Source: Escherichia phage vB_EcoP-22664BS1. From it: 39,133 bases of DNA. Where the stretch lies: sequence record MZ234009.1; one strand, given 5' to 3'. Below the pieces are notes generated by a model. It searched no databases. It was not told the DNA's origin and saw nothing but the letters and a program-made list of their open reading frames with translations. This document shows, one piece after another, positions 3,001 to 35,178 of this stretch (positions are counted from its first letter, which is position 1; every line of letters starts with the position of its first letter). Both the position numbers and the translations under genes were made by a program.

Positions 3001-3303
3001 CTTCCGCGCTCACCTACCGAGAAGACGGAGAAGCCAATCGCCTTTGGTGCTGCTTCCAGTGGTCCGGTAATGAATGTGGTCGGCAACTTCCTTGAGCAGG
3101 TCCCGGCTTTCGGCTATGCTGCTAACGTTGGTGCTACGGCTTACAACTTGGCGGGATACCTCAAGGCTGATACCCGTGTCAACGAGCGAGACTACATGAC
3201 CGGGATGTATAACACGTTCCGTGAACTTGTACCGAATGACCCGATTACCCAGAAGTTGCTGCTTGGAACGTTTGAGGAGCAGGGCATCCACATCAAGGAC
3301 TAA
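1..3303 (+). CDS. 16: Internal virion protein D (gp16), C-terminal 1100 aa; 5' partial at window start, continues in frame from 38549..39133 if the sequence is circular
   Basis: ORF track 1..3303; colinear similarity to recalled T7 gp16 from about residue 215 (STFFGF...GVDPLSYVP...SPTGMQSGASGK...GTYVPHVY...NPTMI); position before gene 17. Confidence 0.9.
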   Translation: MQEREERSTWFGFGAATEAEVKNSMVGVAIRAGQTEDSLDVIGDVFNPTRWNNHKWSREELDQIRNAGVLPQYYGVITGGSPQNLTELINFALENQKLDQEKAKAGTGAQLAAGVIGAGVDPLTYVPIAGQVGKGGKLVNKMFTVAAQSGALAGASEIARTSVAGGDAHVAEAIMGGALFGGGMTAIGDAIGKALGKSTNEFAGPATRLEARETARNVDGQDLSRMPIREGEETFSHQGVKFADVPNEPGSVRLEDGSILIGENPLNPKTRKVFDEVIEPERAAAGVNLGGLTEIGLKLLRSENPEIRGVAADLVRSPTGMQSGASGKIGTTASDVFERLRAVDHRFYNDIDDAVTEALKDPYFQTAFWRDSGAFRQDIYQRVSMAIEDGSGNLKAELTPGELKVYDLLKNQFDAKREMMENPAMFGRPDAQSIFPGSRFKGTYVPHVYSNQMKELYIKELGSPEALQEAIKKSWLTSYASRPEVKKRVDEELLEADPTLTPEGLAAAVDKYANDKAYGISHTEQFERSSVMEENINGLVGLENNSFLEARNLFDSDMSIVLPNGQTFSVNNLREWDMDKIVPAYNRRVNGDIAIMAGTGKTTKDMKDLVETLMNKAGDDGKLKGEVSTLRDTLKILTGRARRDGADDAAFATVMRTMTDLSFFAKNAYMGVQNLTEIGGMLARGNVRAMLHGVPIFRDLAFRNKKVGASEIKDLHNVIFGKELDDSIRPSKQDVIDRLRSYSDLGRGTATALGTAKYYTGELAVRSPFTKVLNGTTNYLLDAGRQGFLSDIVEHSLTGSKRKFDDRWLKTAGISDEQWKGIKSLIRESVTRGPDGKYTIKDKKAFSQDPRAMDLWRMGDTIADETLLRPHKLSNMDAKAYGPIAKTVLQFKNFVIKSINGRTMRTFYNATKNNRAMDAALSTVMSMGLAGMYYMAQAHIKAYAMQDGRDREYLKQALNPTMIGYAALSRSSHLGGPLGVANILGGIAGYEDTKMLRSSILPRSPTEKTEKPIAFGAASSGPVMNVVGNFLEQVPAFGYAANVGATAYNLAGYLKADTRVNERDYMTGMYNTFRELVPNDPITQKLLLGTFEEQGIHIKD

Positions 3304-3321
3304 ACTATCACTATAGGAAAC
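3299..3321 (+). promoter_or_regulatory. Phage RNAP promoter (phi17-like), variant with A at +3
   Basis: taaactatcactatagg matches the 11-copy promoter family; 45 nt upstream of gene 17 start. Confidence 0.65.
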
Positions 3322-3367
3322 TGGAGGCGCTACCATAGGTCTCCGTTTAAATCACAAAGGAGGCATA

Positions 3368-5548
3368 ATGTCCACGATTACACAATTCCCTTCAGGAAAC
3401 ACTCAGTACAGGATAGAGTTCGACTACCTAGCCAGAACGTTTGTTGTTGTTACGCTGGTGAATAGCTCTAACCCTACCCTGAACCGTGTACTGGAAGTTG
3501 GTCGAGATTACCGATTCCTTAATCCAACGATGATTGAGATGTTGGCTGACCAATCAGGTTTCGACATCGTTCGTATTCACCGTCAGACTGGAACTGACTT
3601 AGTGGTAGACTTCAGGAATGGCTCAGTGTTGACAGCTAGTGACCTGACCAATTCAGAGCTTCAGGCTATCCATATTGCAGAAGAAGGTCGAGACCAAACG
3701 GTTGACTTAGCGAAGGAATATGCCGATGCTGCTGGTAGCTCTGCTGGCAACGCTAAGGATAGCGAGGACGAAGCACGCCGAATCGCTGCGAGTATCAAGG
3801 CAGCTGGTAAAATTGGCTATATTACCCGTCGCTCCTTCGAGAAAGGCTTCAACGTTACAACAGGGAACGAGGTCCTGCTATGGGAAGAGGATGGTGCTTA
3901 TTACCGCTGGGATGGTACGCTTCCAAAGAACGTTCCCGCTGGTTCAACTCCTGAATCATCTGGTGGTATTGGGCTGAGTGCGTGGGTTAGTGTTGGTGAT
4001 GCGTCACTTAGAGCAAACCTGGCTGATAGTGATGGCGCTAAATACATAGGCAGTGGAGAAAGGACATTACTTGAGCACAACAATGATGTTTTGCACTCAA
4101 AAGACTTTCCAACACTGCAGGCAGCTATAGATGCATCTTTGCAAAAAAATGATCTACTGGTGTCTCCTGGCAATTATACTGAAAAAGTTACTATTGGAAA
4201 CGCGCAATTAAAAGGTGTTGGCGGGGCCACGGTACTAAAAACTCCGGCAGACTTTACAAACACTGTTCAGGTTAATTTAGCTACACCTCATTGGCAATTC
4301 CGCCATAGTGGTGGTTTTGCTATAGATGGTTCCGGGACAACCGGGGCCGTAGGTATTAGTTTTGACCCGTCAGACCAATATTCCGGACGTCATAATTTTA
4401 GTGATGTATACATCCACAACATCAACAAGGCCATTCAGAAGCCTTCCGGGAACATCGGCAATACTTGGAGAAATATTGGGATATCTACGTGTGATTGGGG
4501 GTATTACGCGATTAGTGGCTCAGAGATGCATTGCGGGGCCGATACCCTCTACAATATCCACTTCGATGGCATCTCCACCTATGCAGTCTATCTAGACGGC
4601 ACTGTCGATAATGGCGGGGGGGGCGCATGGTGGCTTAAAGACTCCATTATTGAGGCTTCCGGAGGTGGCGGGATATACTTAAAAAGTAAATCGGGCGACT
4701 GTCCTACATCTCCATGCGGGGTATCCAATATATGGATGGAAGCGATCGCAACATCACCGGCTGTTCAGGTAGACGGCGTGGCGCAAAAACCGCGAGTTCT
4801 CAAGTTGGTAGACACAGCGATATTCTTTGCTGAGTATTCTTATCTCAACAACATCGAGCTATCCAACTCCAACTTAGTAACTTATGGTTGCCGTTTTGAC
4901 AACGCTGATGGCAATCAGGATATTGTCGTGGATGCACAAAGTACCATTGTAGCCCATGACGTGTATTTAAACGGCAGTTCTGGAAAGGACGTTATTGTGG
5001 AGTCCGTAGCATCGCAATCTGCAACGATAGCTGCCACAAACTTATCTCTGAGGGGCAACTTAACAAGAGGGAGAGTATTTAATACGCCGACAGGGAATAA
5101 ATTAATGGCTATCACATTTGACTCAGGTAGCCATAATTTTTCTGGCAGCGGCACCGTTAACGGTTCGACTGTATCTGACGGACTTCACGCCGCTACATGT
5201 ACCGAATTTTCATTCCCCGGAGCCGGTTTATATGAAATGGTAGCGACAAGAACAACCATTACATCCGGTAGATGGTACGTGTGGGGAGTTAACTCACGCC
5301 TACAATCTGGCTCGGCGGATATTAGTATAACGTCAGGTATTACCATGGGTAGTGTTTACACAAAGCCGGGGGAGTGGATTAGCACTTTCGGTGTAGGAAA
5401 GGCATCTACCACTGGCACTGTAGCGCTATACGTTTCCACAGGAGGAGGTTCGGGAGCTACGGTCAGATTCAGTGACTTTTTCATCGCTGAGTTTACGACG
5501 CAAGCTCAGGCTTTAGCTTTCGCCAATTCAAGGATGTCGTTATCATAA
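3368..5548 (+). CDS. 17: Tail fibre / tailspike (gp17): T7-like N-terminal anchor domain plus non-T7 C-terminal beta-helix-like domain
   Basis: RBS aaggagg before ATG; N-terminal about 150 aa closely match T7 gp17 (MSTITQFPSGNTQYRIEFDYL...FLNP...); C-terminal about 570 aa Gly/Ser/Asn/Thr-rich with repetitive short strands. Confidence 0.85.
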   Translation: MSTITQFPSGNTQYRIEFDYLARTFVVVTLVNSSNPTLNRVLEVGRDYRFLNPTMIEMLADQSGFDIVRIHRQTGTDLVVDFRNGSVLTASDLTNSELQAIHIAEEGRDQTVDLAKEYADAAGSSAGNAKDSEDEARRIAASIKAAGKIGYITRRSFEKGFNVTTGNEVLLWEEDGAYYRWDGTLPKNVPAGSTPESSGGIGLSAWVSVGDASLRANLADSDGAKYIGSGERTLLEHNNDVLHSKDFPTLQAAIDASLQKNDLLVSPGNYTEKVTIGNAQLKGVGGATVLKTPADFTNTVQVNLATPHWQFRHSGGFAIDGSGTTGAVGISFDPSDQYSGRHNFSDVYIHNINKAIQKPSGNIGNTWRNIGISTCDWGYYAISGSEMHCGADTLYNIHFDGISTYAVYLDGTVDNGGGGAWWLKDSIIEASGGGGIYLKSKSGDCPTSPCGVSNIWMEAIATSPAVQVDGVAQKPRVLKLVDTAIFFAEYSYLNNIELSNSNLVTYGCRFDNADGNQDIVVDAQSTIVAHDVYLNGSSGKDVIVESVASQSATIAATNLSLRGNLTRGRVFNTPTGNKLMAITFDSGSHNFSGSGTVNGSTVSDGLHAATCTEFSFPGAGLYEMVATRTTITSGRWYVWGVNSRLQSGSADISITSGITMGSVYTKPGEWISTFGVGKASTTGTVALYVSTGGGSGATVRFSDFFIAEFTTQAQALAFANSRMSLS

Positions 5549-5692
5549 AAACAACCTCAGCCGAATCGGGTTATTTATCATCAGAACGGTATTGAATCAT
5601 CGAAGGTTGTGGAGGTAGAGGCTAACTACACGTTGACCAACGTATGATAACAACTTTGGGTCACGGACGACCCGCTTTAAACTGGAGGTTTT

Positions 5693-5887
5693 ATGATTGA
5701 GTTAGACTTCAAGAATGAGGTCCTCAAAGCCTCGCCTATCGTCGGGACCGCTGCGGCTGATGGTGCCAGTCGGTTCTTCTTTGGGCTAACGCTCAACGAA
5801 TGGTTCTACGTCGCTGCTATCGCGTACACCGTGGTGCAGATTGGCGTCCTAATTTACAAGACGATTAAGAGCGGAGGTAAGACATGA
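5693..5887 (+). CDS. 17.5: Class II holin (gp17.5)
   Basis: Matches recalled T7 gp17.5 (FFGL.LNEWFYVAAIAYTVVQIG); RBS ggagg; hydrophobic segment. Confidence 0.85.
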   Translation: MIELDFKNEVLKASPIVGTAAADGASRFFFGLTLNEWFYVAAIAYTVVQIGVLIYKTIKSGGKT

Positions 5888-6147
5888 CGCAGATGGACTT
5901 AGAGAAGTTCCTGTTAATGCTGGACACAGAACGTGCTAGACTAATGCTGCAAGACCTGCGGGATGACTCTAAGCGTTCGCCCCAGCTCTACAACGCCATT
6001 GAGAAGCTACTGGCTCGTCACAACTTCGTGCTAAGCAAGGTGTCTGTTGACGAGAAGACGCTCGCTGATATGGAGGCCCTGAACGCAGAGTACGATAAGG
6101 TGCTCTCCGCTACGGAAGATAATGACACTGGGTATGGAGTGCAGTAA
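5884..6147 (+). CDS. 18: Terminase small subunit (gp18)
   Basis: ATGA overlap with holin stop; similarity to T7 gp18 (RSPQLYNAI.KLL.RH.F); synteny. Confidence 0.85.
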   Translation: MTQMDLEKFLLMLDTERARLMLQDLRDDSKRSPQLYNAIEKLLARHNFVLSKVSVDEKTLADMEALNAEYDKVLSATEDNDTGYGVQ

Positions 6148-6159
6148 ATCTCTTAAGTG

Positions 6160-6205
6160 TTAGACTCAAGGTCATTACTGTGTGTAGTGGCCTTTATGGT
6201 TAACA
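6160..6205 (+). promoter_or_regulatory. Conserved hairpin element (RNase III processing-site-like, R18.5 position)
   Basis: agactcaaggtc...gtggcctttatgg motif shared with elements at 15301 and 22521 and with recalled T7 RNase III sites. Confidence 0.45.
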
Positions 6206-6257
6206 CTAACTAGTGGAGGAGACTCTACGTGAAATCTGATAAACCGGGAGGGCAACT

Positions 6258-6707
6258 ATGCTCGAATTTTTAAAGAGAGCGGCTCCGTGGTTACTTGCAG
6301 CAGTGATGTTTGCTGGTGGCTACCACACCGCTAACAATAAGTGGGGGGCTAAGGTCAATGCAGAATACACCTCGAATCTTAAGGCATCGGAAGATACAAG
6401 GCTTGCTGTCCAAGCTGAAGTCAACAAAGTGTCCAAACGGTTTCAGGACGAAATGTCCTCGCTGGAAGGCAGCACTGATAGGATTATTGCTGACCTTCAG
6501 TCTGACAATAAGCGGTTGCGCATCCGAGTCAAACCAACGAGTGGAACCACGCAAAGTGACGGTCGATGCTTCATTGATGGTTACGCCGAACTTGACGAAC
6601 GAGATGCTAAACGTCTTATCGCCATCGGAGTGAAAGGAGACAAGTGGATTAAGGCCCTTCAAGACACTGTGAGAGCCTTACAGCAAGAGAAGGAGGTGAC
6701 GCATTGA
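6258..6707 (+). CDS. 18.5: i-spanin (gp18.5, Rz-like)
   Basis: Similarity to T7 gp18.5 (MLEFL...DRIISDLRSDNKRLR.RVK); N-terminal TM segment. Confidence 0.85.
6358..6633 (+). CDS. 18.7: o-spanin (gp18.7, Rz1-like lipoprotein) embedded in +1 frame inside gp18.5; start codon uncertain (6310 or 6358)
   Basis: Embedded ORF with lipobox-like LTISGC and similarity to T7 gp18.7 (PRWKGALIGL...ISGCASES...SLMV.PNLT.EMLNV). Confidence 0.6.
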   Translation: MQNTPRILRHRKIQGLLSKLKSTKCPNGFRTKCPRWKAALIGLLLTFSLTISGCASESNQRVEPRKVTVDASLMVTPNLTNEMLNVLSPSE

Positions 6708-8467: not shown

Positions 8468-8476
8468 CTGAATGAA

Positions 8477-8513
8477 TAACTATAGGTGAAAGCTGCATGA
8501 ATAAGCAGGTAGT
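8477..8513 (+). other. Perfect 10-bp inverted repeat (aactataggt / acctatagtt) forming a potential hairpin just downstream of gene 19
   Basis: Read directly from sequence; no downstream U-tract. Confidence 0.4.
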
Positions 8514-8561
8514 AACCTATAGTTACTACCAGTCTAACATACTGTTTTACAAGGAGTTTGG

Positions 8562-8584
8562 ACTTAACTATCACTATAGGGAAG
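8562..8584 (+). promoter_or_regulatory. Phage RNAP promoter near right genome end (phiOR-like)
   Basis: acttaactatcactatagggaag matches promoter family. Confidence 0.65.
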
Positions 8585-8764
8585 ACCCCCGGTTACTTAT
8601 AGTATTACTGTAGTGAATATACATATGCAGACTTTATGCAAGACCTTAGGAGGCAGACTCCGAGTTATTACCTAAGGCTTGCACCGATGGAAGGAGGGTG
8701 ATATTAATCATAATCCCTCCAATACAGATAGTCACCGACCATAGATACAGGAGGTATGTAGCAT

Positions 8765-9130: not shown

Positions 9131-9163
9131 GATGAGTTTTGGACCAAAAGTTTGAGACCACAT

Positions 9164-9350: not shown

Positions 9351-9351
9351 A

Positions 9352-9909: not shown

Positions 9910-10164
9910 ATGGACACTATGAAACACTTAAGCACAATCACTAATCGCAATGAAGTATTCGTGAACACTAAAGGTTATGCGTGGATTCAGCTTAAAGAGA
10001 TGACAGGAGCGCGTCACCGTGTGGTAGTGCGCAAGGTATCAAGCAAGCAGTTCAGCAACTACAGCGTCGATACTGTGCGTATAGACAACGAGACATACCT
10101 GATAGACTCGCAGATAACCGTGAGTCCTACAGTGGGCGTCTCAGCTCCTTATTTCGCTAACTGA
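9910..10164 (+). CDS. Early protein, unknown function (84 aa)
   Basis: ORF track; RBS aaggatgg; first gene after host promoters. Confidence 0.5.
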   Translation: MDTMKHLSTITNRNEVFVNTKGYAWIQLKEMTGARHRVVVRKVSSKQFSNYSVDTVRIDNETYLIDSQITVSPTVGVSAPYFAN

Positions 10165-10173
10165 GAGTGATTA

Positions 10174-10219
10174 ACTACAGGTCGTTAGACTGATAGCGGC
10201 CTGACTGATAGTCACTAAC
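10174..10219 (+). promoter_or_regulatory. Early-region conserved element, copy 2
   Basis: actacaggtcgttagactgatagcggcctgactgatagtcactaac. Confidence 0.35.
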
Positions 10220-10247
10220 ACATAATTAACTTTGAGAGGATATAACT

Positions 10248-10754
10248 ATGGAACGTAATGCTAACGCATACTATGAGCTGCTGGCTGCAACCGTTGAGGC
10301 ATTTATCGAGCGTATTCAGTACGACCACCTGACTCAAGATGACGACTACAGCGATGCGCTGCATGAGGTCGTAGACGGTCAGGTTCCTCACTATTACCAC
10401 GAGATTTTTACGGTGATGGCTGCTGATGGTATAGACAACGAGTTCGAAGACTCTGGGATGATACCTGAAACCAAGGACGTAACGCGTATCCTACAAGCTC
10501 GCATCTATGAGGCACTTTATAACGACGTGTCTAATAGCTTGGATGTAGTCTGGTTTGAGGATGAAGAGGCAGACGAAGAGGATGAATATTGGGTAGTTGA
10601 CGCTAAAACAGGCGCAATAATTGTGCAAGCTGTAGCTCTTGAGGTCGCTACTGCATGTGCCAAGGTTAACTATGCGGCAGGTCGCCACCTGAAGGTGGAA
10701 GACATCAATGATAACGTAGTGTTCGACCCTGCGGCTGAGGACTGCGAGCGATGA
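10248..10754 (+). CDS. 0.3: Ocr-like DNA-mimic anti-restriction protein (gp0.3 homolog) with about 50-aa C-terminal extension
   Basis: [43 protein letters not shown] matches T7 Ocr core; acidic stretch [10 protein letters not shown]; 168 aa versus 117 aa in T7. Confidence 0.8.
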
Positions 10755-10900
10755 TAACTTACGGTTTATGCCAGCACCACGTCACCAACGCCCGGCTTAT
10801 GGTCAAGACCGGGCAGTTAGACCACGATTGGGCTATGCGTCTCTTGAAAGTGGTCTACAGGAGACGCAAGCGTATACACGACAGTTTACACGCTAAGTGA
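10751..10900 (+). CDS. Small basic protein (49 aa), ATGA overlap with Ocr stop
   Basis: Hand-translated [49 protein letters not shown]; no clear RBS, translational coupling possible. Confidence 0.3.
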
Positions 10901-10903
10901 CAG

Positions 10904-10947
10904 ACTACAGGTCATCAATGCTGGTGGCCTGACTGATAGTCATTAAC
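10904..10947 (+). promoter_or_regulatory. Early-region conserved element, copy 3
   Basis: actacaggtcatcaatgctggtggcctgactgatagtcattaac. Confidence 0.35.
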
Positions 10948-10963
10948 AACTGAGAGGGAAGAT

Positions 10964-11191
10964 ATGAACACAATCACTGGTGCCATAACCAAAGGTTTTC
11001 GAGCAATTTTCGGTGAAACGCAAGAAGTATGCACCAATCATAAATTCGTACTTTCTTGCGTAGCAGGTGACGAGTTTGACGGGTTCGATAAACTGGTGGT
11101 TTGCGACCATTGCGGACAAGAGGCTATCCAACACTCAAACGGTAAATTTGAATTAATAGACGATAGCCTTACAGAAGGAGACGGCGAGTAA
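10964..11191 (+). CDS. Early small protein with four Cys (C-x8-C...C-x2-C), putative zinc ribbon
   Basis: ORF track; RBS gagggaag; cysteine pattern in translation. Confidence 0.5.
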   Translation: MNTITGAITKGFRAIFGETQEVCTNHKFVLSCVAGDEFDGFDKLVVCDHCGQEAIQHSNGKFELIDDSLTEGDGE

Positions 11192-11323
11192 CCTAAATAA
11201 ACAGGAGAGAACCAAATCATAGCTTGACCATAACACTGACGTGATGGTACTGAGTGATAGACGAGAGGTCATCGACTGATAGGTGGCCTCAAAGATTACC
11301 ACTTACATTGATAGGAGTTAACT

Positions 11324-11428
11324 ATGAGCACTGCAATCATCTGGACTATCTCAGGCTTCGTAGCGTGGGGAATGTTTACTCTAGTCTGCAAACTACCGGT
11401 CCTTACTCAACTGTTATGGGGCTTATGA
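11324..11428 (+). CDS. Small hydrophobic peptide (34 aa)
   Basis: Strong RBS aggag 6 nt before ATG; hand-translated MSTAIIWTISGFVAWGMFTLVCKLPVLTQLLWGL; stop overlaps next start (ATGA). Confidence 0.35.
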   Translation: MSTAIIWTISGFVAWGMFTLVCKLPVLTQLLWGL

Positions 11429-11628
11429 CTTTGAGTATCGCACTATTGATAGCCATAGGCTATGGACTTATCGCCTACGTGCTGGTGAGAGACATCAACA
11501 AAGCGCGTAAAGTCTACAAATTCAACTATGTACGTCTGGGTAGCTGGACTGTACGTCAACCTAACGGACGATTCATGCGTAACTTAGCGAACGTCTGGGC
11601 TATAGCAACACTTGGGAGCAAACTGTAA
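11425..11628 (+). CDS. Early small membrane protein (67 aa)
   Basis: In frame with track ORF 11254..11628; predicted TM helix (LSIALLIAIGYGLIAYVLV); ATGA coupling to the upstream peptide. Confidence 0.45.
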   Translation: MTLSIALLIAIGYGLIAYVLVRDINKARKVYKFNYVRLGSWTVRQPNGRFMRNLANVWAIATLGSKL

Positions 11629-11954
11629 TGAACAAGTCATACGGGATTAATCTGGTACACTCTATGGACGCAGACATGCAAATGTTAAGCCTACTGGCTA
11701 CCGGGTATCGTCACGGAACGTCAAGTCACTCCGCACGTCAACAGCAGGAGCGGGACCGGGTACTGCAAGCAAGACTCCGGGCTGAGGGCCATAAGTCCGA
11801 ACTAATGTGTCTGGCGTATGGTGGACGACCAATCACTGACGATGGTAAACTTTTAGTCTCAGGCTGGAAGGCGATAGACCAACGGTCAACCATCAAGCAC
11901 ACTACTCATGGTGACTTCAGTCATCTCCACGCTAACCCGCTGATATGCAAGTAA
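11628..11954 (+). CDS. Early protein, unknown function (108 aa), immediately upstream of RNAP where T7 carries gene 0.7
   Basis: ORF track; TAATG overlap with upstream gene. Confidence 0.5.
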   Translation: MNKSYGINLVHSMDADMQMLSLLATGYRHGTSSHSARQQQERDRVLQARLRAEGHKSELMCLAYGGRPITDDGKLLVSGWKAIDQRSTIKHTTHGDFSHLHANPLICK

Positions 11955-11959
11955 TTCTG

Positions 11960-11982
11960 ACTTAACTATCACTATAGGACTC
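11960..11982 (+). promoter_or_regulatory. Phage RNAP promoter upstream of the RNAP gene (A at +3)
   Basis: acttaactatcactataggact matches promoter family; lies about 75 nt upstream of gene 1 start. Confidence 0.6.
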
Positions 11983-12051
11983 AAGGTCTAAGACTCCAAG
12001 TGAAAGACCAAAGAGACTTTAAGTGAAAGACTAATAACAAGGACTTTAAGT

Positions 12052-14733
12052 ATGAGCGTCATCTCTATTGACAAGCACGACTTCTCTGATGTGTCGAACG
12101 CCATTGAGCCGTTTAACCTACTGGCTGACCACTACGGGCAAGACCTTGCAGTCAAACAGCTTCAGCTTGAGCACGAGGCATACACTGAAGGCGAGCGACG
12201 TTTCATCAAGAACCTTGAGCGCCAGACCGAGCGCGGGGAACTGGCAGACAATCAGGTAGCCAAGCCTCTTATGCAGACTCTTGTTCCTAAGATTGTGCAA
12301 GCCGTCAAGGAGTGGCACGAAGGTCCAGACGGGAAGCTGTCAACCTCTCGTCCGAGCGTAGCGTTCACCATGTTGAGCACTGAAGAGAAGGCCGTAAAGG
12401 ACCGCTCTTTGCGCATCTCCTGCGAATCTGCTGCGGTTATCATACTGAAGGTCATACTCTCCAAGCTGATCAAGCCTGAAGGGATACCGATTACACCGAT
12501 GGCATCCGCGATAGGGCGCACACTTGAGGACGAAATCCGCTTCGGTCGCATCCGTGACAAGGAGAAAGAGCACTTCAAGAAGGCGATAGCTGATAACCTG
12601 AATAAGCGGGCCGGGGCGTCCTACAAGAAAGCCTACATGCAAGCGGTCGAGGCATCCATGCTGGAGCAAGGCCAACTGGAAGATGCGTGGGGGACTTGGA
12701 GTCCTACAGAGGCTGTCCACGTTGGCGTCAAGATGCTTGAGATTGTCATCCAGTCAACACAACTGGTAGAGCTTAAGCGGTACGGTGCTGGCAATGCAGC
12801 GGCTGACGTTGAGATGGTCCACCTGTCAGACTTCTGGGTCAAGAAGATGGCACAACGAGGATTCAGCCTTGCGGGTATCGCTCCAGTCTACCAGCCTTGC
12901 GTCGTTCCACCTAAGCCGTGGACCGGTGTCGTAGGAGGTGGGTACTGGGCCAAAGGACGCAGACCACTGCCACTGATTCGCTTAGGGTCTAAGTCTGCGG
13001 TGGCACGTTACGAAGACGTGTACATGCCTGAAGTCTATGACGCTGTGAATATCATCCAGAATACACCTTGGAAAGTGAACAAGAAGGTTCTGGACGTGGT
13101 GAACATGGTCGAGAAGCTGAACAACACGCCTATTGATGACATCCCTCAGATGGAACCGCTGAAGCCTGAGGACTATGCGGGTGAGACTGAAGAAGAACTC
13201 AAGGCATGGAAGAAGGCTGCTGCTGGTATCTATCGCCGCGAGAAGGCCAGACAGTCACGAAGATTGTCACTGAGCTTTATCGTCAACCAAGCGAACAAGT
13301 TCTCTCAGTTCAAGGCCATCTGGTTCCCGTATAACATGGACTGGCGTGGGCGCGTCTACGCTGTTCCGATGTTCAACCCTCAGGGTAACGACATGCAGAA
13401 GGGTCTTCTGACTCTGGCAGTCGGTAAGCCTATTGGTGCTGATGGTTTCAAATGGCTGAAGGTCCACGGTGCAAACTGCGCGGGTGTCGATAAAGTCACC
13501 TTCGAGGAGCGTATCAAGTGGGTGGAAGATAACCACGACAACATCATGGCTGCTGCTAAGGCGCCGATGGATAGTATTGAGTGGTGGGGCAAGTTAGACT
13601 CTCCGTTCTGCTTCCTAGCGTTCTGCTTCGAGTATGCTGGCGTAATGCACCACGGCTTGTCTTACTCCTGCTCGCTGCCGATAGCGTTCGATGGGTCCTG
13701 CTCTGGGATTCAGCACTTCAGCGCTATGCTTCGCGACCACATCGGTGGACATGCAGTAAACCTGACGCCATCCGGTAAGGTCCAAGACATCTACCGAATC
13801 GTGTCTGACCGCATTGAGGAGGAGCTTAAAGTCCTACTGGTTAACGGTACGGACAACGAGATGGTAACTCACGAGGACAAGAAAACTGGTGAGATTACCG
13901 AGCGTCTCAAGCTGGGGACACGAGAGCTTGCCAGTCAGTGGCTTACCTACGGTATGTCACGAAAGGTCACTAAGCGTTCGGTCATGACTCTGGCCTACGG
14001 GTCGAAAGAGTACGGCTTCGCAGACCAAGTTTACGAGGACATCGTGATGCCAGCGATTGACTCAGGGTCTGGCGCTATGTTCACTGAACCAAGCCAAGCA
14101 TCTCGCTTCATGGCTAAGATGATTTGGGAAGCTGTGAGTGTGACCGTAGTTGCTGCGGTTGACGCGATGAAATGGCTTCAGGGTGCTGCCAAGCTGCTTG
14201 CTGCTGAAGTGAAGGACAAGAAGACTGGAGAAATCCTGAAGCCTTGTCTTCCGGTACACTGGGTCACACCTGATGGTTTCCCTGTCTGGCAGGAATACCG
14301 CAAGAAGGACACCACTCGTCTGAACCTGATGTTCTTAGGGTCATTCAACCTTCAGCCTACCGTCAACAAAGGCACGAAGAAAGAGCTGGACAAGCACAAG
14401 CAGGAGTCAGGCATTAGCCCGAACTTCGTCCACTCACAAGATGGTAGCCACCTCCGCAAGACTGTAGTCCACACGCATCGCAAGTACGGCGTGATGTCAT
14501 TCGCAGTGATTCACGATAGCTTCGGGACCATCCCGGCTGACGCTGAGTATCTGTTCCGTGGAGTCCGTGAGACGATGGTCGAGACCTACCGCGACAACGA
14601 TGTGCTGCTTGACTTCTACGAGCAGTTTGAATACCAGCTTCACGAGAGCCAGAGAGACAAGTTGCCTGAGCTTCCGAAGAAAGGTAAACTGAATATCGAA
14701 GACATCTTGTCTTCAGACTTTGCATTCGCTTAA
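12052..14733 (+). CDS. 1: Single-subunit DNA-directed RNA polymerase (gp1)
   Basis: Extensive colinear identity to T7 RNAP (FNLLADHYG, PCVVPPKPWTG, WFPYNMDWRGRVYAV, DGSCSGIQHFSAML, HDSFGT, C-terminal DFAFA). Confidence 0.97.
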   Translation: MSVISIDKHDFSDVSNAIEPFNLLADHYGQDLAVKQLQLEHEAYTEGERRFIKNLERQTERGELADNQVAKPLMQTLVPKIVQAVKEWHEGPDGKLSTSRPSVAFTMLSTEEKAVKDRSLRISCESAAVIILKVILSKLIKPEGIPITPMASAIGRTLEDEIRFGRIRDKEKEHFKKAIADNLNKRAGASYKKAYMQAVEASMLEQGQLEDAWGTWSPTEAVHVGVKMLEIVIQSTQLVELKRYGAGNAAADVEMVHLSDFWVKKMAQRGFSLAGIAPVYQPCVVPPKPWTGVVGGGYWAKGRRPLPLIRLGSKSAVARYEDVYMPEVYDAVNIIQNTPWKVNKKVLDVVNMVEKLNNTPIDDIPQMEPLKPEDYAGETEEELKAWKKAAAGIYRREKARQSRRLSLSFIVNQANKFSQFKAIWFPYNMDWRGRVYAVPMFNPQGNDMQKGLLTLAVGKPIGADGFKWLKVHGANCAGVDKVTFEERIKWVEDNHDNIMAAAKAPMDSIEWWGKLDSPFCFLAFCFEYAGVMHHGLSYSCSLPIAFDGSCSGIQHFSAMLRDHIGGHAVNLTPSGKVQDIYRIVSDRIEEELKVLLVNGTDNEMVTHEDKKTGEITERLKLGTRELASQWLTYGMSRKVTKRSVMTLAYGSKEYGFADQVYEDIVMPAIDSGSGAMFTEPSQASRFMAKMIWEAVSVTVVAAVDAMKWLQGAAKLLAAEVKDKKTGEILKPCLPVHWVTPDGFPVWQEYRKKDTTRLNLMFLGSFNLQPTVNKGTKKELDKHKQESGISPNFVHSQDGSHLRKTVVHTHRKYGVMSFAVIHDSFGTIPADAEYLFRGVRETMVETYRDNDVLLDFYEQFEYQLHESQRDKLPELPKKGKLNIEDILSSDFAFA

Positions 14734-15280: not shown

Positions 15281-15303
15281 CCTAAACTATCACTATAGGC
15301 TTA
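15281..15303 (+). promoter_or_regulatory. Phage RNAP promoter (phi1.1-like)
   Basis: cctaaactatcactataggc. Confidence 0.65.
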
Positions 15304-17147: not shown

Positions 17148-17170
17148 CCTAAGCTATCACTATAGGACAA
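17148..17170 (+). promoter_or_regulatory. Phage RNAP promoter (G at -13)
   Basis: cctaagctatcactataggac. Confidence 0.6.
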
Positions 17171-17871: not shown

Positions 17872-18026
17872 CTGACGTAGAGAAGAAATACATCGTGGAA
17901 CTTGAGGGACGTACCCAGTACTTCGAGGTTCCGGTGTACGCAAAGTCTCTTGAAGAGGCTACACTGAAGTCCCAAGAGTATGAGGACGCTGGGTTTGTGG
18001 TCGGACGGATTCGCCCTGAGACCTAA
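17868..18026 (+). CDS. 2: Gp2-like inhibitor of host RNA polymerase (52 aa)
   Basis: [13 protein letters not shown]....[14 protein letters not shown] matches T7 Gp2 core (FEVPIYAETLDEA...AGFEVTRVRP). Confidence 0.7.
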
Positions 18027-18044
18027 ACTATCACTGTAGGACAG
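18022..18044 (+). promoter_or_regulatory. Phage promoter-like sequence with G at -3 (cactGtagg), phi2.5 position
   Basis: taaactatcactgtaggac; one mismatch in the core. Confidence 0.4.
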
Positions 18045-20240: not shown

Positions 20241-20453
20241 ATGATTAAACTTATTGAATTTCTGGGTCGTCTGGTTGTGCGTGGCTATTCTCGTGCTGCG
20301 AGTGTGGAACGAAAAGTCGCATCTGCTGCGGCTAAAGGTGCGGAAGCGGCTGCTGCGGAAGCGGATAGTCTGCGCATCAAGTCTCTGGACGCTGGCCTAC
20401 GTGCCAAAGGTCTTGACAAGAAAGCCGAGCAACTGAAAGGCTTCTTCAGCTAA
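20241..20453 (+). CDS. Hypothetical Ala-rich small protein (70 aa)
   Basis: ORF track; RBS aaggaga. Confidence 0.5.
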   Translation: MIKLIEFLGRLVVRGYSRAASVERKVASAAAKGAEAAAAEADSLRIKSLDAGLRAKGLDKKAEQLKGFFS

Positions 20454-20471
20454 ACTATCACCTTAGGGATG
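20449..20471 (+). promoter_or_regulatory. Degenerate phage promoter-like sequence (caccttaggga; mismatches at -4/-3)
   Basis: ctaaactatcaccttagggatga. Confidence 0.35.
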
Positions 20472-20516: not shown

Positions 20517-20595
20517 GTCTCCATAGCTCAAACGGTAGAGCGGCGGGTCGTGATGGCCTATTGCGATTAGGGTTCGAATCCCCGTGGAGACGCCA
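20517..20595 (+). tRNA. tRNA-like element (canonical acceptor stem, D-arm, T-loop and encoded CCA; irregular anticodon arm; isotype unresolved, possibly anticodon CGU)
   Basis: gtctcca/tggagac 7-bp acceptor stem, gctc-aaacggta-gagc D-arm, ggttcgaatcc T-loop, 3' gcca; the anticodon arm only pairs with a G-G mismatch and the variable region is 9 nt. Confidence 0.4.
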
Positions 20596-26547: not shown

Positions 26548-26570
26548 ACTAAACTATCACTATAGGGACT
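26548..26570 (+). promoter_or_regulatory. Phage RNAP promoter (phi6.5-like)
   Basis: ctaaactatcactatagggact. Confidence 0.7.
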
Positions 26571-26631
26571 TTAGGACCTAAGATATGACTATAAGATAGA
26601 CTTTAGTCTTAACTTAAAGAGGAGATTCAAG

Positions 26632-27822: not shown

Positions 27823-29391
27823 ATGGCTGAACGTGAAGGGTTCGCTGCTGAAGGCGCTAAGTCAGTTTATGATAGATTGAAGAACGGACGACAGCCTTAC
27901 GAGACCCGCGCACAGAACTGTGCTGCTGTCACTATCCCGTCACTGTTTCCTAAGGAATCAGACAACTCGTCTACTGAATATACCACTCCGTGGCAAGCTG
28001 TAGGTGCTCGCTGCTTGAACAACTTGGCTGCAAAGCTGATGTTGGCGTTATTCCCTCAGTCACCGTGGATGCGACTGACAGTCTCCGAATATGAGGCCAA
28101 GACCTTGAGTCAGGACTCAGAGGCTGCTGCTCGTGTTGACGAAGGGCTTGCTATGGTCGAGCGTGTGTTGATGGCCTACATGGAGACTAACAGTTTCCGT
28201 GTGCCATTGTTCGAAGCTCTGAAGCAGCTTATCGTCTCCGGTAACTGTCTGCTTTACATTCCAGAGCCTGAACAGGGTACTTACAGTCCGATGCGGATGT
28301 ACCGCTTAGTGTCTTACGTTGTTCAACGTGATGCGTTCGGTAACATCTTGCAGATTGTGACTCTCGACAAGGTAGCTTTCAGTGCTCTACCGGAAGACGT
28401 GAAGTCTCAACTCAATGCAGACGACTATGAGCCTGACACCGAGCTTGAAGTGTATACGCACATCTACCGTCAAGACGACGAGTATCTACGCTACGAGGAA
28501 GTGGAAGGGATTGAGGTAGCAGGGACCGATGGTTCCTACCCGCTGACTGCATGTCCGTACATCCCGGTACGAATGGTTCGACTGGATGGTGAAGACTACG
28601 GTCGTTCTTACTGCGAGGAGTATCTGGGCGACCTTAACTCGCTGGAGACGATTACAGAAGCTATCACCAAAATGGCTAAGGTAGCCTCCAAGGTGGTGGG
28701 ACTCGTTAACCCGAACGGTATCACGCAACCTCGACGTCTGAACAAGGCGGCTACAGGTGAGTTCGTGGCTGGTCGCGTTGAGGACATCAACTTCCTGCAA
28801 CTGACGAAAGGTCAGGACTTTACGATTGCCAAGTCGGTGGCTGACGCTATCGAGCAACGTTTAGGCTGGGCCTTCCTTCTTAATAGTGCTGTTCAGCGTA
28901 ATGCAGAGCGTGTCACTGCTGAAGAGATTCGTTATGTTGCTGGCGAACTGGAGGCGACATTAGGTGGCGTGTACTCAGTACAGTCACAAGAGCTTCAGTT
29001 ACCTATCGTCCGTGTGCTGATGAACCAGCTTCAGTCTGCTGGCATGATTCCTGACCTTCCGAAAGAAGCGGTAGAGCCTACGGTCTCCACTGGTCTTGAA
29101 GCGTTAGGCCGTGGTCAAGACTTAGAGAAGCTGACTCAGGCAGTCAACATGATGACCGGGCTACAGCCTCTGGCTCAGGACCCAGACATTAACTTGCCTA
29201 CCCTGAAGCTGCGACTGCTGAATGCCTTAGGCATTGACACCGCTGGTCTACTCCTTACGCAGGACGAGAAGATTCAGCGCATGGCTGAACAGTCGTCTCA
29301 ACAGGCAGTAGTCCAAGGTGCTGGTGCTGCTGGTGCCAACATGGGCGCTGCTGTAGGTCAGGGAGCTGGTGAGGACATGGCTCAAGCCTAA
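27823..29391 (+). CDS. 8: Portal (head-to-tail connector) protein (gp8)
   Basis: Extensive colinear identity to T7 gp8 (YETRAQNCA, TPWQAVGAR, YRLVSYVVQRDAFGN, VRLDGEDYGRSY, ERVTAEEIRYVA). Confidence 0.97.
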   Translation: MAEREGFAAEGAKSVYDRLKNGRQPYETRAQNCAAVTIPSLFPKESDNSSTEYTTPWQAVGARCLNNLAAKLMLALFPQSPWMRLTVSEYEAKTLSQDSEAAARVDEGLAMVERVLMAYMETNSFRVPLFEALKQLIVSGNCLLYIPEPEQGTYSPMRMYRLVSYVVQRDAFGNILQIVTLDKVAFSALPEDVKSQLNADDYEPDTELEVYTHIYRQDDEYLRYEEVEGIEVAGTDGSYPLTACPYIPVRMVRLDGEDYGRSYCEEYLGDLNSLETITEAITKMAKVASKVVGLVNPNGITQPRRLNKAATGEFVAGRVEDINFLQLTKGQDFTIAKSVADAIEQRLGWAFLLNSAVQRNAERVTAEEIRYVAGELEATLGGVYSVQSQELQLPIVRVLMNQLQSAGMIPDLPKEAVEPTVSTGLEALGRGQDLEKLTQAVNMMTGLQPLAQDPDINLPTLKLRLLNALGIDTAGLLLTQDEKIQRMAEQSSQQAVVQGAGAAGANMGAAVGQGAGEDMAQA

Positions 29392-29409
29392 ACTATCACT
29401 ATAGGAACA
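29387..29409 (+). promoter_or_regulatory. Phage RNAP promoter (phi9-like)
   Basis: cctaaactatcactataggaac. Confidence 0.65.
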
Positions 29410-29485
29410 ACACCGTAAGTCCAACTCTAGGTGAGTCAACTAGACGAGGCAGGTGTTACCTATTAACTACCAAAGGAGAGACTTA

Positions 29486-30370: not shown

Positions 30371-30373
30371 TTG

Positions 30374-30396
30374 ACTAAACTATCACTATAGGGAGA
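30374..30396 (+). promoter_or_regulatory. Phage RNAP promoter (phi10-like), full consensus
   Basis: tgactaaactatcactatagggagacc. Confidence 0.75.
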
Positions 30397-30498
30397 CCAA
30401 GAGACAGACTCAAGGTTTCCCTATTACTTCAGTCCATACGGATTGGGCATACAGTAAGTAATAAACTTTATCTTTCAATTGAATAGGAGAATTATCAT

Positions 30499-31548: not shown

Positions 31549-31811
31549 CGACCCTTAAGGCCCTCTCTACAGAGGGTCCTACCTTAGAGACGTATAGTTC
31601 TACGGTGGGAACCAGCCTGAAGGTTGACTTCCCTGAGCTTTCAGATGTGACCGATTGGTCGCTGCTTGAGGTGACTACGCCTGATGGTGTTAGCTACTCC
31701 CGTAGAACCAACAGTCTCTACTTCAAGGCCACCTCTGGCGTGGAAGGTCTCGTGATTGTTGGGTATGACTGGACGCCTGTGCGTTCCTTCAACGTATCTT
31801 TCACAAACTAA
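30499..31811 (+). CDS. 10: Predicted minor capsid protein 10B made by -1 ribosomal frameshift at GGTTTTC (31521..31527), extending about 94 codons to the stop at 31809..31811
   Basis: Hand translation of 31527..31605 in the -1 frame shows no stop, and that frame continues into track ORF 31605..31811; heptamer position matches the known T7 10A/10B frameshift region. Confidence 0.55.
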
Positions 31812-31814
31812 TTG

Positions 31815-31858
31815 AAACCCCTTGGGTGCCTTCGGGTGCTTGAGGGGTTTTTTTTCTT
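31815..31858 (+). terminator. Intrinsic terminator (T-phi-like) after the capsid gene
   Basis: aaccccttgggtgccttcgggtgcttgaggggtttttttt: GC-rich hairpin plus T8 tract, resembling T7 T-phi. Confidence 0.75.
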
Positions 31859-31970
31859 AAGGAGGGACTATGGTCCTTATTTACACAGGGTTAGCACTAT
31901 TCGTCTTATTCTGGGCGTACCTGCTGTCCAGCTCACCGTCTAGCGCCTATGACCGTTAAGGAGTAAACCT

Positions 31971-32537
31971 ATGGCTCAATACATTACACTGAATGCTAAC
32001 GATGACTTAGATGCCATCAACGATATGTTAGCAGCTATCGGTGAACCAGCAGTCCTACAGCTTGACGAAGGTAACGCTGACGTCTCGAACGCTCAACGTA
32101 TCCTGCATCGTGTCAATCGTCAGGTCCAAGCTAAAGGCTGGAACTTTAACATCAACGAAGCTGCTGTCCTGACACCTGATGTCCAAGACAATAGGATTCG
32201 ATTCCTGCCGTCTTACCTTCGGGTCATGACTGCTGGTGCTACCAGTTACTACAGCAACATGGGGGGCTATCTCTATGACCTGTCCACTCAGTCCACGACC
32301 TTCACTGGACCAATTACAGTCGAACTGGTGGAGATGAAACCGTTCGCTGAGATGCCTGTAGTATTCCGTGACTACATCGTTACCAAGGCCAGCCGTGAGT
32401 TCAACGCTAAGTTCTTCGGTAGCCCAGAGTCTGAACTGTACCTTCGTGAGCAGGAAGCAGAACTCTATCAGCAGGTCATGGAATACGAGATGGATACTGG
32501 TCGCTACAACATGATGTCAGACATCGGGAGGGACTAA
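31971..32537 (+). CDS. 11: Tail tubular protein A (gp11)
   Basis: Colinear with T7 gp11 (NAQRILH.VNRQVQAKGWNFNI.E, EMP..FR.YIVTKASR.FN..FFG.PE, EYEMD.G.YNM). Confidence 0.9.
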   Translation: MAQYITLNANDDLDAINDMLAAIGEPAVLQLDEGNADVSNAQRILHRVNRQVQAKGWNFNINEAAVLTPDVQDNRIRFLPSYLRVMTAGATSYYSNMGGYLYDLSTQSTTFTGPITVELVEMKPFAEMPVVFRDYIVTKASREFNAKFFGSPESELYLREQEAELYQQVMEYEMDTGRYNMMSDIGRD

Positions 32538-32764
32538 TGGCTAGTCACAACCTGAAGATTCACCGCCAGCACTTTGGTCCGGTACAACTAGGTCTAAAGA
32601 CAGCAGAGCTGAGACTTAACGACCGGGACTTTAAGGTTGGCGACTGGCTTATCCTGAATGAGTGGGACAACGGGTATACTGGACAACAGGTAGCGCGTAA
32701 GGTTGTCCACATTGCTGACGTTGGTGAGATCGCTGAGGGATATGTCCTAATGAGTATGATTTAA
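32537..32764 (+). CDS. DUF3850/ASCH-like small protein (75 aa) inserted between tail tube genes 11 and 12
   Basis: ATGA overlap with gp11 stop; motif H.LKI....F..V..G.KT.E.R.NDRDF.VGD.L.L.EW....YTG matches my memory of the DUF3850 consensus. Confidence 0.6.
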   Translation: MASHNLKIHRQHFGPVQLGLKTAELRLNDRDFKVGDWLILNEWDNGYTGQQVARKVVHIADVGEIAEGYVLMSMI

Positions 32765-32773
32765 GGAGAGCCT

Positions 32774-35131
32774 ATGCCATTAATTACGCAAAGCATAAAA
32801 AATCTTAAAGGTGGTATTAGCCAACAGCCTGACATCCTGAGGTTCTCAGACCAAGGCGAGGCTCAAGTTAACTGCTGGTCATCCGAGAGTGATGGCCTCC
32901 AGAAGCGTCCACCTACAGTCTTCAAGCGACGTCTTAACATCGACGTTGGGAGCAACCCTAAGTTCCACCTGATTAACCGTGATGAGCAGGAGCAGTATTA
33001 CATCGTGTTCAACGGGTCCAACATTCAGGTAGTCGACTTGAGCGGTAATCAGTACTCAGTTTCAGGTGCGGTAGACTACGTTAAGTCGTCCAACCCGCGA
33101 GATGACATCCGTGTCGTTACAGTTGCAGACTATACGTTCGTCGTTAACCGTAAGGTTGTCGTTAAAGGTGGAAGCGATAAGTCACACTCTGGTTATAATC
33201 GTAAAGCACGCGCTTTAATTAACCTGCGTGGTGGACAGTATGGTCGCACCCTTAAGGTAGGAATCAACGGAGGCGTTAAGGTTTCGCATAAGTTGCCAGC
33301 AGGTAATGATGCCGAGAATGACCCTCCTAAGGTTGATGCTCAGGCTATCGGTGCAGCTCTGAGAGACCTTCTTGTTGCTGCTTACCCTACCTTCACGTTC
33401 GACCTTGGGTCTGGATTCCTGTTAATCACTGCCCCTTCAGGGACTGACATTAACTCAGTGGAGACGGAGGATGGCTACGCTAACCAGCTAATCAGCCCAG
33501 TACTCGACACGGTGCAAACAATCTCTAAGCTGCCTCTTGCAGCTCCAAATGGGTACATCATTAAGATTCAAGGTGAGACCAACAGTAGCGCCGATGAGTA
33601 TTACGTGATGTATGACTCCAACACTAAGACGTGGAAGGAGACAGTAGAGCCGGGAGTGGTCACTGGGTTCGATAACACCACAATGCCACATGCTCTGGTT
33701 AGACAATCTGACGGCTCCTTTGAGTTCAAGACTCTGGACTGGTCTAAGCGGGGTGCTGGTAATGATGACACAAACCCTATGCCTAGCTTCGTGGATGCTA
33801 CGATTAACGATGTGTTCTTCTACAGGAACAGGCTAGGGTTCTTGTCAGGAGAGAACGTAATCATGAGCCGTTCAGCCAGCTACTTTGCGTTCTTCCCTAA
33901 GAGTGTGGCGACATTGAGTGATGATGACCCTATTGACGTAGCTGTAAGTCACCCTAGAATCTCAATACTTAAGTATGCCGTTCCGTTTAGCGAGCAGCTA
34001 CTACTTTGGTCAGATGAGGTGCAGTTCGTGATGACAAGCTCGGGGGTCCTTACCTCGAAGTCTATCCAGCTTGATGTAGGCTCAGAGTTTGCCTTAGGAG
34101 ATAACGCCAGACCGTTCGCTGTAGGACGCTCAGTCTTCTTCTCAGCGCCTCGTGGGTCATTCACCAGTATTAAGCGATACTTCGCTGTAGCAGATGTGTC
34201 TGACGTGAAGGATGCCGATGATACCACTGGTCACGTACTGTCCTATATCCCTAACGGGGTGTTTGACATTCAAGGTACAGGGACTGAGAACTACATCTGC
34301 GTCAACTCCACAGGTGCATACAACCGAATCTACATCTACAAGTTCTTGTTTAAGGACGGCGTACAACTTCAAGCCTCTTGGTCGCACTGGGAGTTCCCTA
34401 AAGCTGATAAGATTCTGGCGTCTGCGTCGATTGGCTCTACCATGTTCATTGTTCGTCAGCACCAAGGGGGTGTGGACATTGAGCACCTTAAGTTCATCAA
34501 GGAGGCAACCGACTTTCCATTAGAGCCGTATAGACTCCACGTTGACTCTAAGGTGTCTATGGTAATCCCAATTGGCTCATATAACGCTGACACCTATGAG
34601 ACTACGGTCGACATTGGTTCTGCTTATGGTGGAAACGCTCCGTCTCCCGGTCGGTACTATCTGATTGACAGTCAGGGTGCCTATGTGGACCTTGGTGAAC
34701 TGACCAGCATCTCAACTGTGGCTATACTCAATGGCGATTGGTCGGGACGTACAGTGTTCATCGGACGGTCTTATCTGATGTCCTACAAGTTCTCACGGTT
34801 CCTGATTAAGATTGAAGACGATAGTGGCACTCAGTCTGAAGACACTGGACGTCTACAGCTTCGTAGGGCTTGGGTCAACTACAAGGACACCGGCGCTCTT
34901 AGACTCATTGTCAGAAACGGTGAGCGGGAGTTCGTGAACACCTTTAATGGGTACACCCTTGGTCAGCAACCCATCGGGACTACCAACATTGGGGACGGTC
35001 AGTATCGCTTCGCTATGAATGGTAACGCATTAACCACGAGTCTAACCTTAGAGTCAGACTATCCTACCCCAGTGTCCATCGTTGGGTGTGGCTGGGAGGC
35101 GTCATACGCTAAGAAAGCTCGTTCCGTCTAA
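32774..35131 (+). CDS. 12: Tail tubular protein B (gp12)
   Basis: Colinear with T7 gp12 (SQSIKNLKGGISQQPDILR, FFYRNRLGFLSGEN, DDDPIDVAVS, RRAWVNY, GCGWE). Confidence 0.95.
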   Translation: MPLITQSIKNLKGGISQQPDILRFSDQGEAQVNCWSSESDGLQKRPPTVFKRRLNIDVGSNPKFHLINRDEQEQYYIVFNGSNIQVVDLSGNQYSVSGAVDYVKSSNPRDDIRVVTVADYTFVVNRKVVVKGGSDKSHSGYNRKARALINLRGGQYGRTLKVGINGGVKVSHKLPAGNDAENDPPKVDAQAIGAALRDLLVAAYPTFTFDLGSGFLLITAPSGTDINSVETEDGYANQLISPVLDTVQTISKLPLAAPNGYIIKIQGETNSSADEYYVMYDSNTKTWKETVEPGVVTGFDNTTMPHALVRQSDGSFEFKTLDWSKRGAGNDDTNPMPSFVDATINDVFFYRNRLGFLSGENVIMSRSASYFAFFPKSVATLSDDDPIDVAVSHPRISILKYAVPFSEQLLLWSDEVQFVMTSSGVLTSKSIQLDVGSEFALGDNARPFAVGRSVFFSAPRGSFTSIKRYFAVADVSDVKDADDTTGHVLSYIPNGVFDIQGTGTENYICVNSTGAYNRIYIYKFLFKDGVQLQASWSHWEFPKADKILASASIGSTMFIVRQHQGGVDIEHLKFIKEATDFPLEPYRLHVDSKVSMVIPIGSYNADTYETTVDIGSAYGGNAPSPGRYYLIDSQGAYVDLGELTSISTVAILNGDWSGRTVFIGRSYLMSYKFSRFLIKIEDDSGTQSEDTGRLQLRRAWVNYKDTGALRLIVRNGEREFVNTFNGYTLGQQPIGTTNIGDGQYRFAMNGNALTTSLTLESDYPTPVSIVGCGWEASYAKKARSV

Positions 35132-35155
35132 CTTATTGAAGGGCCTATAGATTTA

Positions 35156-35178
35156 CCTTAACTATCACTATAGGGACT
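35156..35178 (+). promoter_or_regulatory. Phage RNAP promoter (phi13-like), embedded between the arms of a 12-bp inverted repeat (35139..35150 / 35177..35188)
   Basis: ccttaactatcactatagggact; flanking aagggcctatag / ctataggccctt. Confidence 0.65.

Follow-up and report, generated by a model that had tools for sequence, protein, structure and literature searches.

Eleven K1F-type promoters and their T7-like RNA polymerase gene in Escherichia phage vB_EcoP-22664BS1

Which RNA polymerase (RNAP) reads the repeated promoter-like element of Escherichia phage vB_EcoP-22664BS1, and how far does this pair depart from that of phage T7? The stretch of DNA considered here, referred to as the window, comprises all 39,133 nucleotides (nt) of sequence record MZ234009.1. 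An earlier note on this DNA had described a family of eleven promoters with a specificity region unlike that of T7, had regarded two copies as degenerate and perhaps inactive, had proposed a position weight matrix scan as a check, and had pointed to the value of such pairs as orthogonal transcription systems. We conclude, with a probability of about 95%, that the eleven repeats are K1F-type promoters of a Kayfunavirus, a K1F-lineage podophage resembling T7, and that they are read by the single-subunit RNAP of the phage itself. The K1F-type promoter set is already known, and is present here in a close relative of sequenced phages.

A search of the window with TAAACTATCACTATAGGRA, allowing up to three mismatches, returned exactly eleven matches, all on the plus strand, at positions 3301, 8564, 11962, 15283, 17150, 18024, 20451, 26550, 29389, 30376 and 35158. 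Dinucleotide shuffles gave a mean of 0.01 matches, and a count of eleven was reached in none of 100 shuffles. The family is thus real and lies where it had been placed, the coordinates given earlier being 2 nt 5' of the search matches, at promoter position -17 when the first G of the GG is numbered +1. The sequence of the eleven plus-strand copies can be written as (A/C)CT(A/T)AACTATCACTATAGG. The conserved block, (A/C)CT(A/T)AACTATCACTATA followed by GG and with C-16 and T-15 invariant, exceeds the string quoted earlier, which is matched exactly by four copies and with one or two differences by the other seven. The proposed weight matrix scan (23 columns, 36 bits) likewise bore the family out: the eleven copies score 27-37 bits and there is no twelfth on either strand, circular wrap included, as the next best site reaches 14.1 bits, less than the shuffle maximum of 15.5. 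This best extra site, GACCTAAGATATGACTATAAGAT at 26573-26597 (+1 would be 26594), is in the chance range and lies 29 nt 3' of the phi6.5 start. It is kept in phages K1F and vB_EcoP-101136BS1 (hereafter 101136BS1), and may be what is left of an old tandem copy that decayed, or merely part of a conserved leader.

Positions -7 to +2 read CACTATAGG in nine of the eleven copies, with one or two changes in the remaining two, and this core is the same as that of the T7 consensus. An element of about 23 base pairs (bp) with an initiation core of the CACTATAGG type, G at +1 and a cognate T7-like RNAP in the same genome places the family among the promoters of the T7 group (Studiervirinae). The upstream half is different. 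Positions -12 to -7 are ACTATC, preceded by CT(A/T)A, in all copies except phi1.6, which has G-12. Just as the earlier note had read them, all five positions from -12 to -8 (ACTAT) differ from the CGACT of T7, and positions -17 to -13 are ACT(A/T)A in the window and TAATA in T7. The elements are not T7 promoters proper, which carry CGACT at -12 to -8, nor are they of the T3 type, in which ACCCT at these positions is paired with D at the equivalent of T7 N748; the window has ACTAT and N. The ACTATC block, the K1F-type loop of the polymerase and the slot set of the genus assign them to the K1F-type class.

The phylogenetic setting agrees with this assignment. Over their full length, the first 20 kb of the window share 98.4% identity with 101136BS1 (Kayfunavirus LM33P1; Autographiviridae, Studiervirinae), below which hundreds of K1F-like phages follow in the match list. 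The gene order is that of T7 and all genes are on the plus strand. The coordinates indicate that the window is a whole Kayfunavirus genome, circularly permuted and opened within gene 16, because the segments 38549-39133 (585 nt) and 1-3303 together make up the 3888 nt of K1F gene 16. GenBank record MZ234024 has the identical start point, and the truncated 1-3303 piece is annotated there as a complete coding sequence.

The RNAP encoded by gene 1 (Table 1) differs from K1F RNAP by seven substitutions, none of which falls in the three recognition elements compared: the specificity loop, equivalent to T7 residues 739-770, is the same in 32 of 32 residues, and K1F has the same AT-rich recognition loop and intercalating hairpin. 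Relative to T7, the specificity loop carries R756N, Q754S and differences at further positions, with R746, N748 and Q758 retained, and the N-terminal AT-rich recognition loop differs as well. Polymerases at least 80% identical to that of the window are encoded in about 220 deposited phage genomes. The minimal promoter of the RNAP of Ro45lw has been mapped in vitro as ACTTAACTATCACTATAGGGA, with initiation at G+1 (PMC12272871). Sequence, statistics, placement, orthology and the identity of the polymerase come from the present analysis, and initiation at G+1 and promoter discrimination from published work on enzymes 94-99% identical.

All eleven copies are oriented with the genes and lie ahead of gene clusters, and when the +1 positions are mapped onto the gene order, ten of the eleven slots match annotated T7 promoters. 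The same eleven sites were recovered when the window matrix was applied to K1F and 101136BS1, and the K1F sequences are identical or nearly so: nine are identical from -21 to +7 and the others differ only outside the -16 to +2 core. In their RefSeq records, EcoDS1 and CR44b have eleven annotated phage promoters apiece, whose slots correspond one-for-one to those of the window, including the one upstream of gene 1. Cross-genome comparison, by pattern searches over loci and by alignments, revealed that the promoter cores are far better preserved than their surroundings. Between the window and Ro45lw, 204 of 209 core positions (-17 to +2) are identical (97.6%) vs 720 of 911 (79%) in the 40-nt flanks (Fisher p = 1e-13); for K1F the values are 208 of 209 (99.5%) vs 794 of 900 (88%; p = 2e-9). 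Within or beside a promoter core, the window has just one change of its own, the C+3 of phi1.1 (position 15300, GGC), where the five compared relatives have A (GGA). The eleven copies are orthologous and each is individually conserved.

This conservation bears directly on the two copies that had been called degenerate. Their sequences are as the earlier note described them, namely phi2.5 with CACTGTAGG (A-3G) and phi4 with CACCTTAGG (T-4C, A-3T), and they have two of the three lowest scores of the family (32.4 and 27.1 bits vs 35-37 for the late promoters), with changes in the -4/-3 melting region, whose influence on promoter strength has been established in T7. They might on this account be decaying, inactive relics. 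However, every deviation from the consensus between -16 and +2 is common to all four relatives, K1F, EcoDS1, CR44b and 101136BS1, at the same slot: G-12 in phi1.6, G-3 in phi2.5, C-4/T-3 in phi4, and T-14 in the gene 1, phi13 and phiOR copies. The A-3G variant of phi2.5 also occurs in Ro45lw. The flanks have meanwhile diverged by 8-24%, and decay without selection would not have held a relic to one particular variant; in T7, natural class II promoters likewise deviate between -5 and +1. Decay to inactive relics is therefore unlikely and was rejected on the slot-wise conservation of the variants. Because the same deviations are kept slot by slot in relatives, these copies are better described as maintained variants, and the inactivity suggested for them is not favoured. 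A third variant had been overlooked, the G-12 of the copy at 17148, which is inside the specificity region. Being conserved at their slots, the variants look like tuned strengths rather than decay.

A polymerase that reads T7-type promoters about equally well, with no distinct recognition pair, would be suggested by the initiation half of the element, which from -7 to +2 is the same as in T7, and by the conservation of R746, N748 and Q758; engineered loop-swap pairs also keep some cross-activity (PMC11880802). Against this, the element departs from T7 at every position from -12 to -8 and in the block from -17 to -13, and both recognition loops of the enzyme differ too. Scores across the two systems are negative both ways: a matrix of the 17 annotated T7 promoters gives -1.6 to -25 bits for the eleven window sites, and the window matrix gives -2 to -18 bits for the 17 T7 promoters. 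The T7 matrix found no site above 8 bits in a scan of the window. Orthogonality has moreover been shown in loop-swap experiments, in which Temme et al. placed the K1F loop in T7 RNAP and gave the T7 promoter the K1F consensus at -12 to -7; the resulting pair was active and showed orthogonality to T7, T3 and N4 (PMC3458549).

Promoter and loop also change together in close relatives. All loci with an RNAP at least 93% identical to that of the window combine the window/K1F-type loop with an ACTATC-type promoter. At 88-89% identity, the contigs L021 and L041 have a promoter of the T3 type, and the loop of L021 (RLDLMFLGTFRLQ) has D at position 748 as in T3, with R756 retained (L021 only). At 78-79%, the loop of locus L019 is shorter and different, and the promoter is of the GGTAC type (Table 1). 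Together with the window these loci form a compact series from nature in which polymerase and promoter co-evolve. Taking the differing loops, the negative cross-scores, the covariation in relatives and the published experiments on near-identical enzymes together, an unselective polymerase is very improbable, and the recognition pair distinct from T7 that the earlier note had put forward is supported. Discrimination against T7 promoters is probably strong and not absolute.

A main role other than that of promoter, for example as replication origin, packaging signal or recombination site, is barely credible for the repeats and was rejected, since their core is homologous to T7 promoters, they are co-oriented and directly 5' of the clusters that T7 promoters serve, and the identical sequence has been shown to act as a promoter; some T7 promoters double as replication origins (phi1.1A/B, phiOL, phiOR), and given this precedent the phi1.1 and phiOR copies may have extra roles.

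If the eleven elements are K1F-type promoters read by the RNAP of the phage, transcription would proceed as follows. The host RNA polymerase would first transcribe the early region and gene 1; a sigma-70 promoter scan of the early region gave counts at or below those of shuffles, and host promoters were not placed by the scan. The phage RNAP would then bind each element of about 23 bp, its specificity loop reading the ACTATC block from -12 to -7 and its N-terminal loop the upstream CT(A/T)AA block, the TATA at -4 to -1 would be melted, and synthesis would start at the G of GG. The copies, all in the direction of the genes, would open the transcription units known from T7. The six late copies (6.5, 9, 10, 13, 17 and OR) have perfect cores and GGG/GGA starts, and the five early or middle copies (before gene 1, 1.1, 1.6, 2.5 and 4) carry non-consensus features, start with GGA/GGC and are found in the DNA-metabolism region. 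By analogy with T7, this split would correspond to the class II/class III pattern, with phi2.5 and phi4 (changes at -4/-3) and phi1.6 (change at -12) as conserved, tuned variants that are probably weaker, like T7 class II promoters. The phi10 transcription unit is bounded by a Tphi-like terminator, for which EcoDS1 and Ro45lw have annotated counterparts in the same place, and its leader carries a 5' stem-loop (z = -2.9).

Some points weigh against this reading. N748 is kept in the RNAP though positions -11 and -10 differ from T7, so that a simple T7 contact map is not a full explanation of the specificity, and the loop-swap RNAPs of Temme et al. kept appreciable non-cognate activity (PMC11880802). 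The promoter strengths and the class II/III split rest on sequence and the T7 analogy, and the evidence on initiation comes from other enzymes, not from this genome. How strong each copy is relative to the others, and which residue contacts which base, are to be taken as predictions.

The promoter upstream of gene 1 has no counterpart among the T7 slots. All the Kayfunavirus-lineage genomes examined have a cognate promoter 75-110 nt 5' of the RNAP gene. K1F, EcoDS1, CR44b and 101136BS1 carry the copy of the window unchanged in this slot, with a promoter annotation in EcoDS1 and CR44b; in Ro45lw it is a CACTAAAGG variant. By contrast, the T7-type and K11-type loci fetched have no cognate promoter at this position, and their first one lies just downstream of gene 1. 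The slot is kept in the specificity-switched relatives L021, L041 and L019, where its promoter has been switched too, and this retention across specificity switches suggests positive feedback on RNAP synthesis. Gene 1 may be an autogene whose product transcribes its own gene in a feedback loop absent in T7, a proposal for which we consider the chances evenly balanced. If the promoter is functional, the timing and amplification of RNAP synthesis in the Kayfunavirus lineage would depart from the T7 paradigm. RefSeq records do annotate the slot; no discussion of it was found in the searchable literature.

Table 1. Coordinates of the promoters, the polymerase gene and related features. Positions are those of the window unless another locus is named; promoter spans run from -17 to +6, and in sequences given in two parts the space precedes +1.
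Feature	Coordinates	Strand	Details
Gene 1, T7-like single-subunit RNAP, 893 amino acids	12052..14733	+	99% identical to K1F RNAP, 64% to T7 RNAP over full length
Specificity-loop coding region, residues 749-780 (T7 739-770)	14296..14391	+	YRKKDTTRLNLMFLGSFNLQPTVNKGTKKELD; identical to K1F
Gene-1-upstream promoter	11960..11982, +1 11977	+	34.8 bits; 75 nt before RNAP gene; ACTTAACTATCACTATA GGACTC
phi1.1 promoter	15281..15303, +1 15298	+	32.6 bits; CCTAAACTATCACTATA GGCTTA; 3' of gene 1 and two small open reading frames, before gene 1.1/1.2 homologues
phi1.6 promoter	17148..17170, +1 17165	+	32.9 bits; G-12; CCTAAGCTATCACTATA GGACAA; before gene 1.6 homologue
phi2.5 promoter	18022..18044, +1 18039	+	32.4 bits; A-3G variant; CCTAAACTATCACTGTA GGACAG; before single-stranded DNA-binding protein gene
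phi4 promoter (T7 phi3.8 equivalent)	20449..20471, +1 20466	+	27.1 bits; T-4C/A-3T variant; GCTAAACTATCACCTTA GGGATG; then tRNA-like gene, then gene 4 (primase/helicase)
phi6.5 promoter	26548..26570, +1 26565	+	36.7 bits; consensus; after exonuclease gene
phi9 promoter	29387..29409, +1 29404	+	37.4 bits; consensus core; before scaffold protein gene
phi10 promoter	30374..30396, +1 30391	+	37.0 bits; consensus, GGGAGA start as in T7 class III; before major capsid gene
phi13 promoter	35156..35178, +1 35173	+	35.3 bits; before gene 13
phi17 promoter	3299..3321, +1 3316	+	36.9 bits; overlaps gene 16 stop codon; before tail protein gene
phiOR promoter	8562..8584, +1 8579	+	35.6 bits; 3' of terminase gene 19; ACTTAACTATCACTATAGGGA
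Tphi-like terminator after gene 10 and small downstream open reading frame	31814..31860	+	17-bp G+C-rich stem, then T run (T9); strong hairpin with T run at 31814-31851
L021 and L041 (IMG/VR contigs)	RNAP 10001-12664		RNAP 88-89% identical; promoter TTAAACCCTCACTATAGGA, T3 type (ACCCT)
L019	RNAP 3475-6129		RNAP 78-79% identical; shorter, different loop RIKLMFMG-VQYRP; promoter AAGGAAGGTACACTATAGG (GGTAC type)
RNAP-gene upstream regions with cognate promoter	window 11960-12051; L021 9898-10000; L019 3345-3474; L004 2400-2497		

Other elements were noted near the promoters. A tRNA-like gene is located on the plus strand at 20517-20595, between the phi4 promoter (+1 20466) and gene 4 (20610). ARAGORN reports it as tRNA-Thr(CGT) and Rfam matches it as tRNA with 36.7 bits; its CCA end is encoded, and its anticodon stem is non-canonical by reading of the sequence. 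The gene is an insertion of about 90 bp that is absent from the closest relative (L001) and occurs in 34 phage records (LM33_P1, ST31 and several Enterobacter and Salmonella phages), in which it is annotated variously as tRNA-Thr, tRNA-OTHER or tRNA-Pseudo(GTG), or is left unannotated. An Rfam scan of the whole window matched only tRNA, and no family covered the promoter leaders and hairpins.

The 11-mer GACTCAAGGTC is over-represented in the window, with 57 matches at up to two mismatches against an expected 14.4 +/- 3.9. Seven copies are exact, at 6163, 9352(-), 11978, 15304, 16430(-), 22525 and 28101(-). Three near-identical hairpins, at about 6160, 15301 and 22522 (z down to -3.4), have it as their 5' arm; their arms read GACUCAAGGUCAU...GUGGCCUUUAUGAUUA or, in a shorter form, GACUCAAGGUC...GUGGCCUUUAUGAUU. 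The leaders that contain these hairpins precede genes 18.5, 1.1 and 5, at the places of the T7 RNase III sites R18.5, R1.1 and R4.7, and the hairpins are likely RNase III processing sites.

Comparison with known systems shows that the novelty implied by the earlier note does not hold: the family, the count of eleven, the slots and the biotechnological use are already on record. As a discovery the finding carries little weight, promoter, polymerase, positions and orthogonal use all having been recorded. Its value is that of a clean positive control, in which a reading of the sequence alone recovered the full promoter set and its non-T7 specificity. The nearest system is that of K1F (NC_007456), which shares with the window an RNAP 99% identical, an identical specificity loop and eleven promoters in the same eleven slots. 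The differences are the seven RNAP substitutions outside the recognition elements, the C+3 of phi1.1, the tRNA-like gene inserted 5' of gene 4 after the phi4 promoter in the window and not in K1F, and a tail protein of 726 residues in the window vs the 1064-residue product of K1F gene 17. The engineered promoter PK1F is presumably TAATAACTATCACTATAGGGAGA, a sequence that is not used as evidence here.

EcoDS1 (NC_011042) and CR44b (NC_023576) agree with the window in consensus, in the eleven slots and in the slot-specific variants, with no difference of substance. The Kayfunavirus Sparklingdew has eight CTWAACTATCACTATAGG repeats that were called promoters (PMC13298934) and have the same consensus as the window. 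In the case of Ro45lw, the phiOR copy of the window matches the mapped 21-mer letter for letter; the RNAP is 94% identical, with a loop that differs at two conservative positions. Ro45lw differs in having twelve copies, the extra one before gene 5, and in the A-2 of its gene-1-upstream and phi4 copies. The K1F specificity features in other published work besides that of Temme et al.: a split-polymerase version of the K1F loop-swap system was later made (PMC4299498), native K1F RNAP with PK1F serves for expression and mutagenesis in E. coli and Halomonas as a system orthogonal to MmP1 and VP4 (PMC12218169), and a survey of 2025 includes K1F as a node in a network of residue-base specificity (PMC11880802).

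With the T7 promoters (17 sites, TAATACGACTCACTATAGGGAGA), the family of the window shares the architecture, the mechanism, the -7 to +2 core and a Tphi after gene 10. The slots 1.1, 1.6, 2.5, 3.8/4, 6.5, 9, 10, 13, 17 and OR are common to both, and in both the late promoters are consensus and the middle ones variant. By contrast, the window has 11 sites vs 17, lacking phiOL, 1.3, 1.5, 4c, 4.3 and 4.7 and having a single copy at 1.1, and it has a promoter directly upstream of gene 1 that T7 does not. T3-type systems, with their N748D switch, are alike in that a few residues of the specificity loop set the preference at -12 to -8, whereas the window keeps N748, has R756N and Q754S, and carries ACTAT rather than ACCCT in its promoters. 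The upstream promoter of the RNAP gene and the ACTAT/ACCCT/GGTAC series, with polymerases 79-99% identical, make up a compact data set on the co-evolution of polymerases and promoters.

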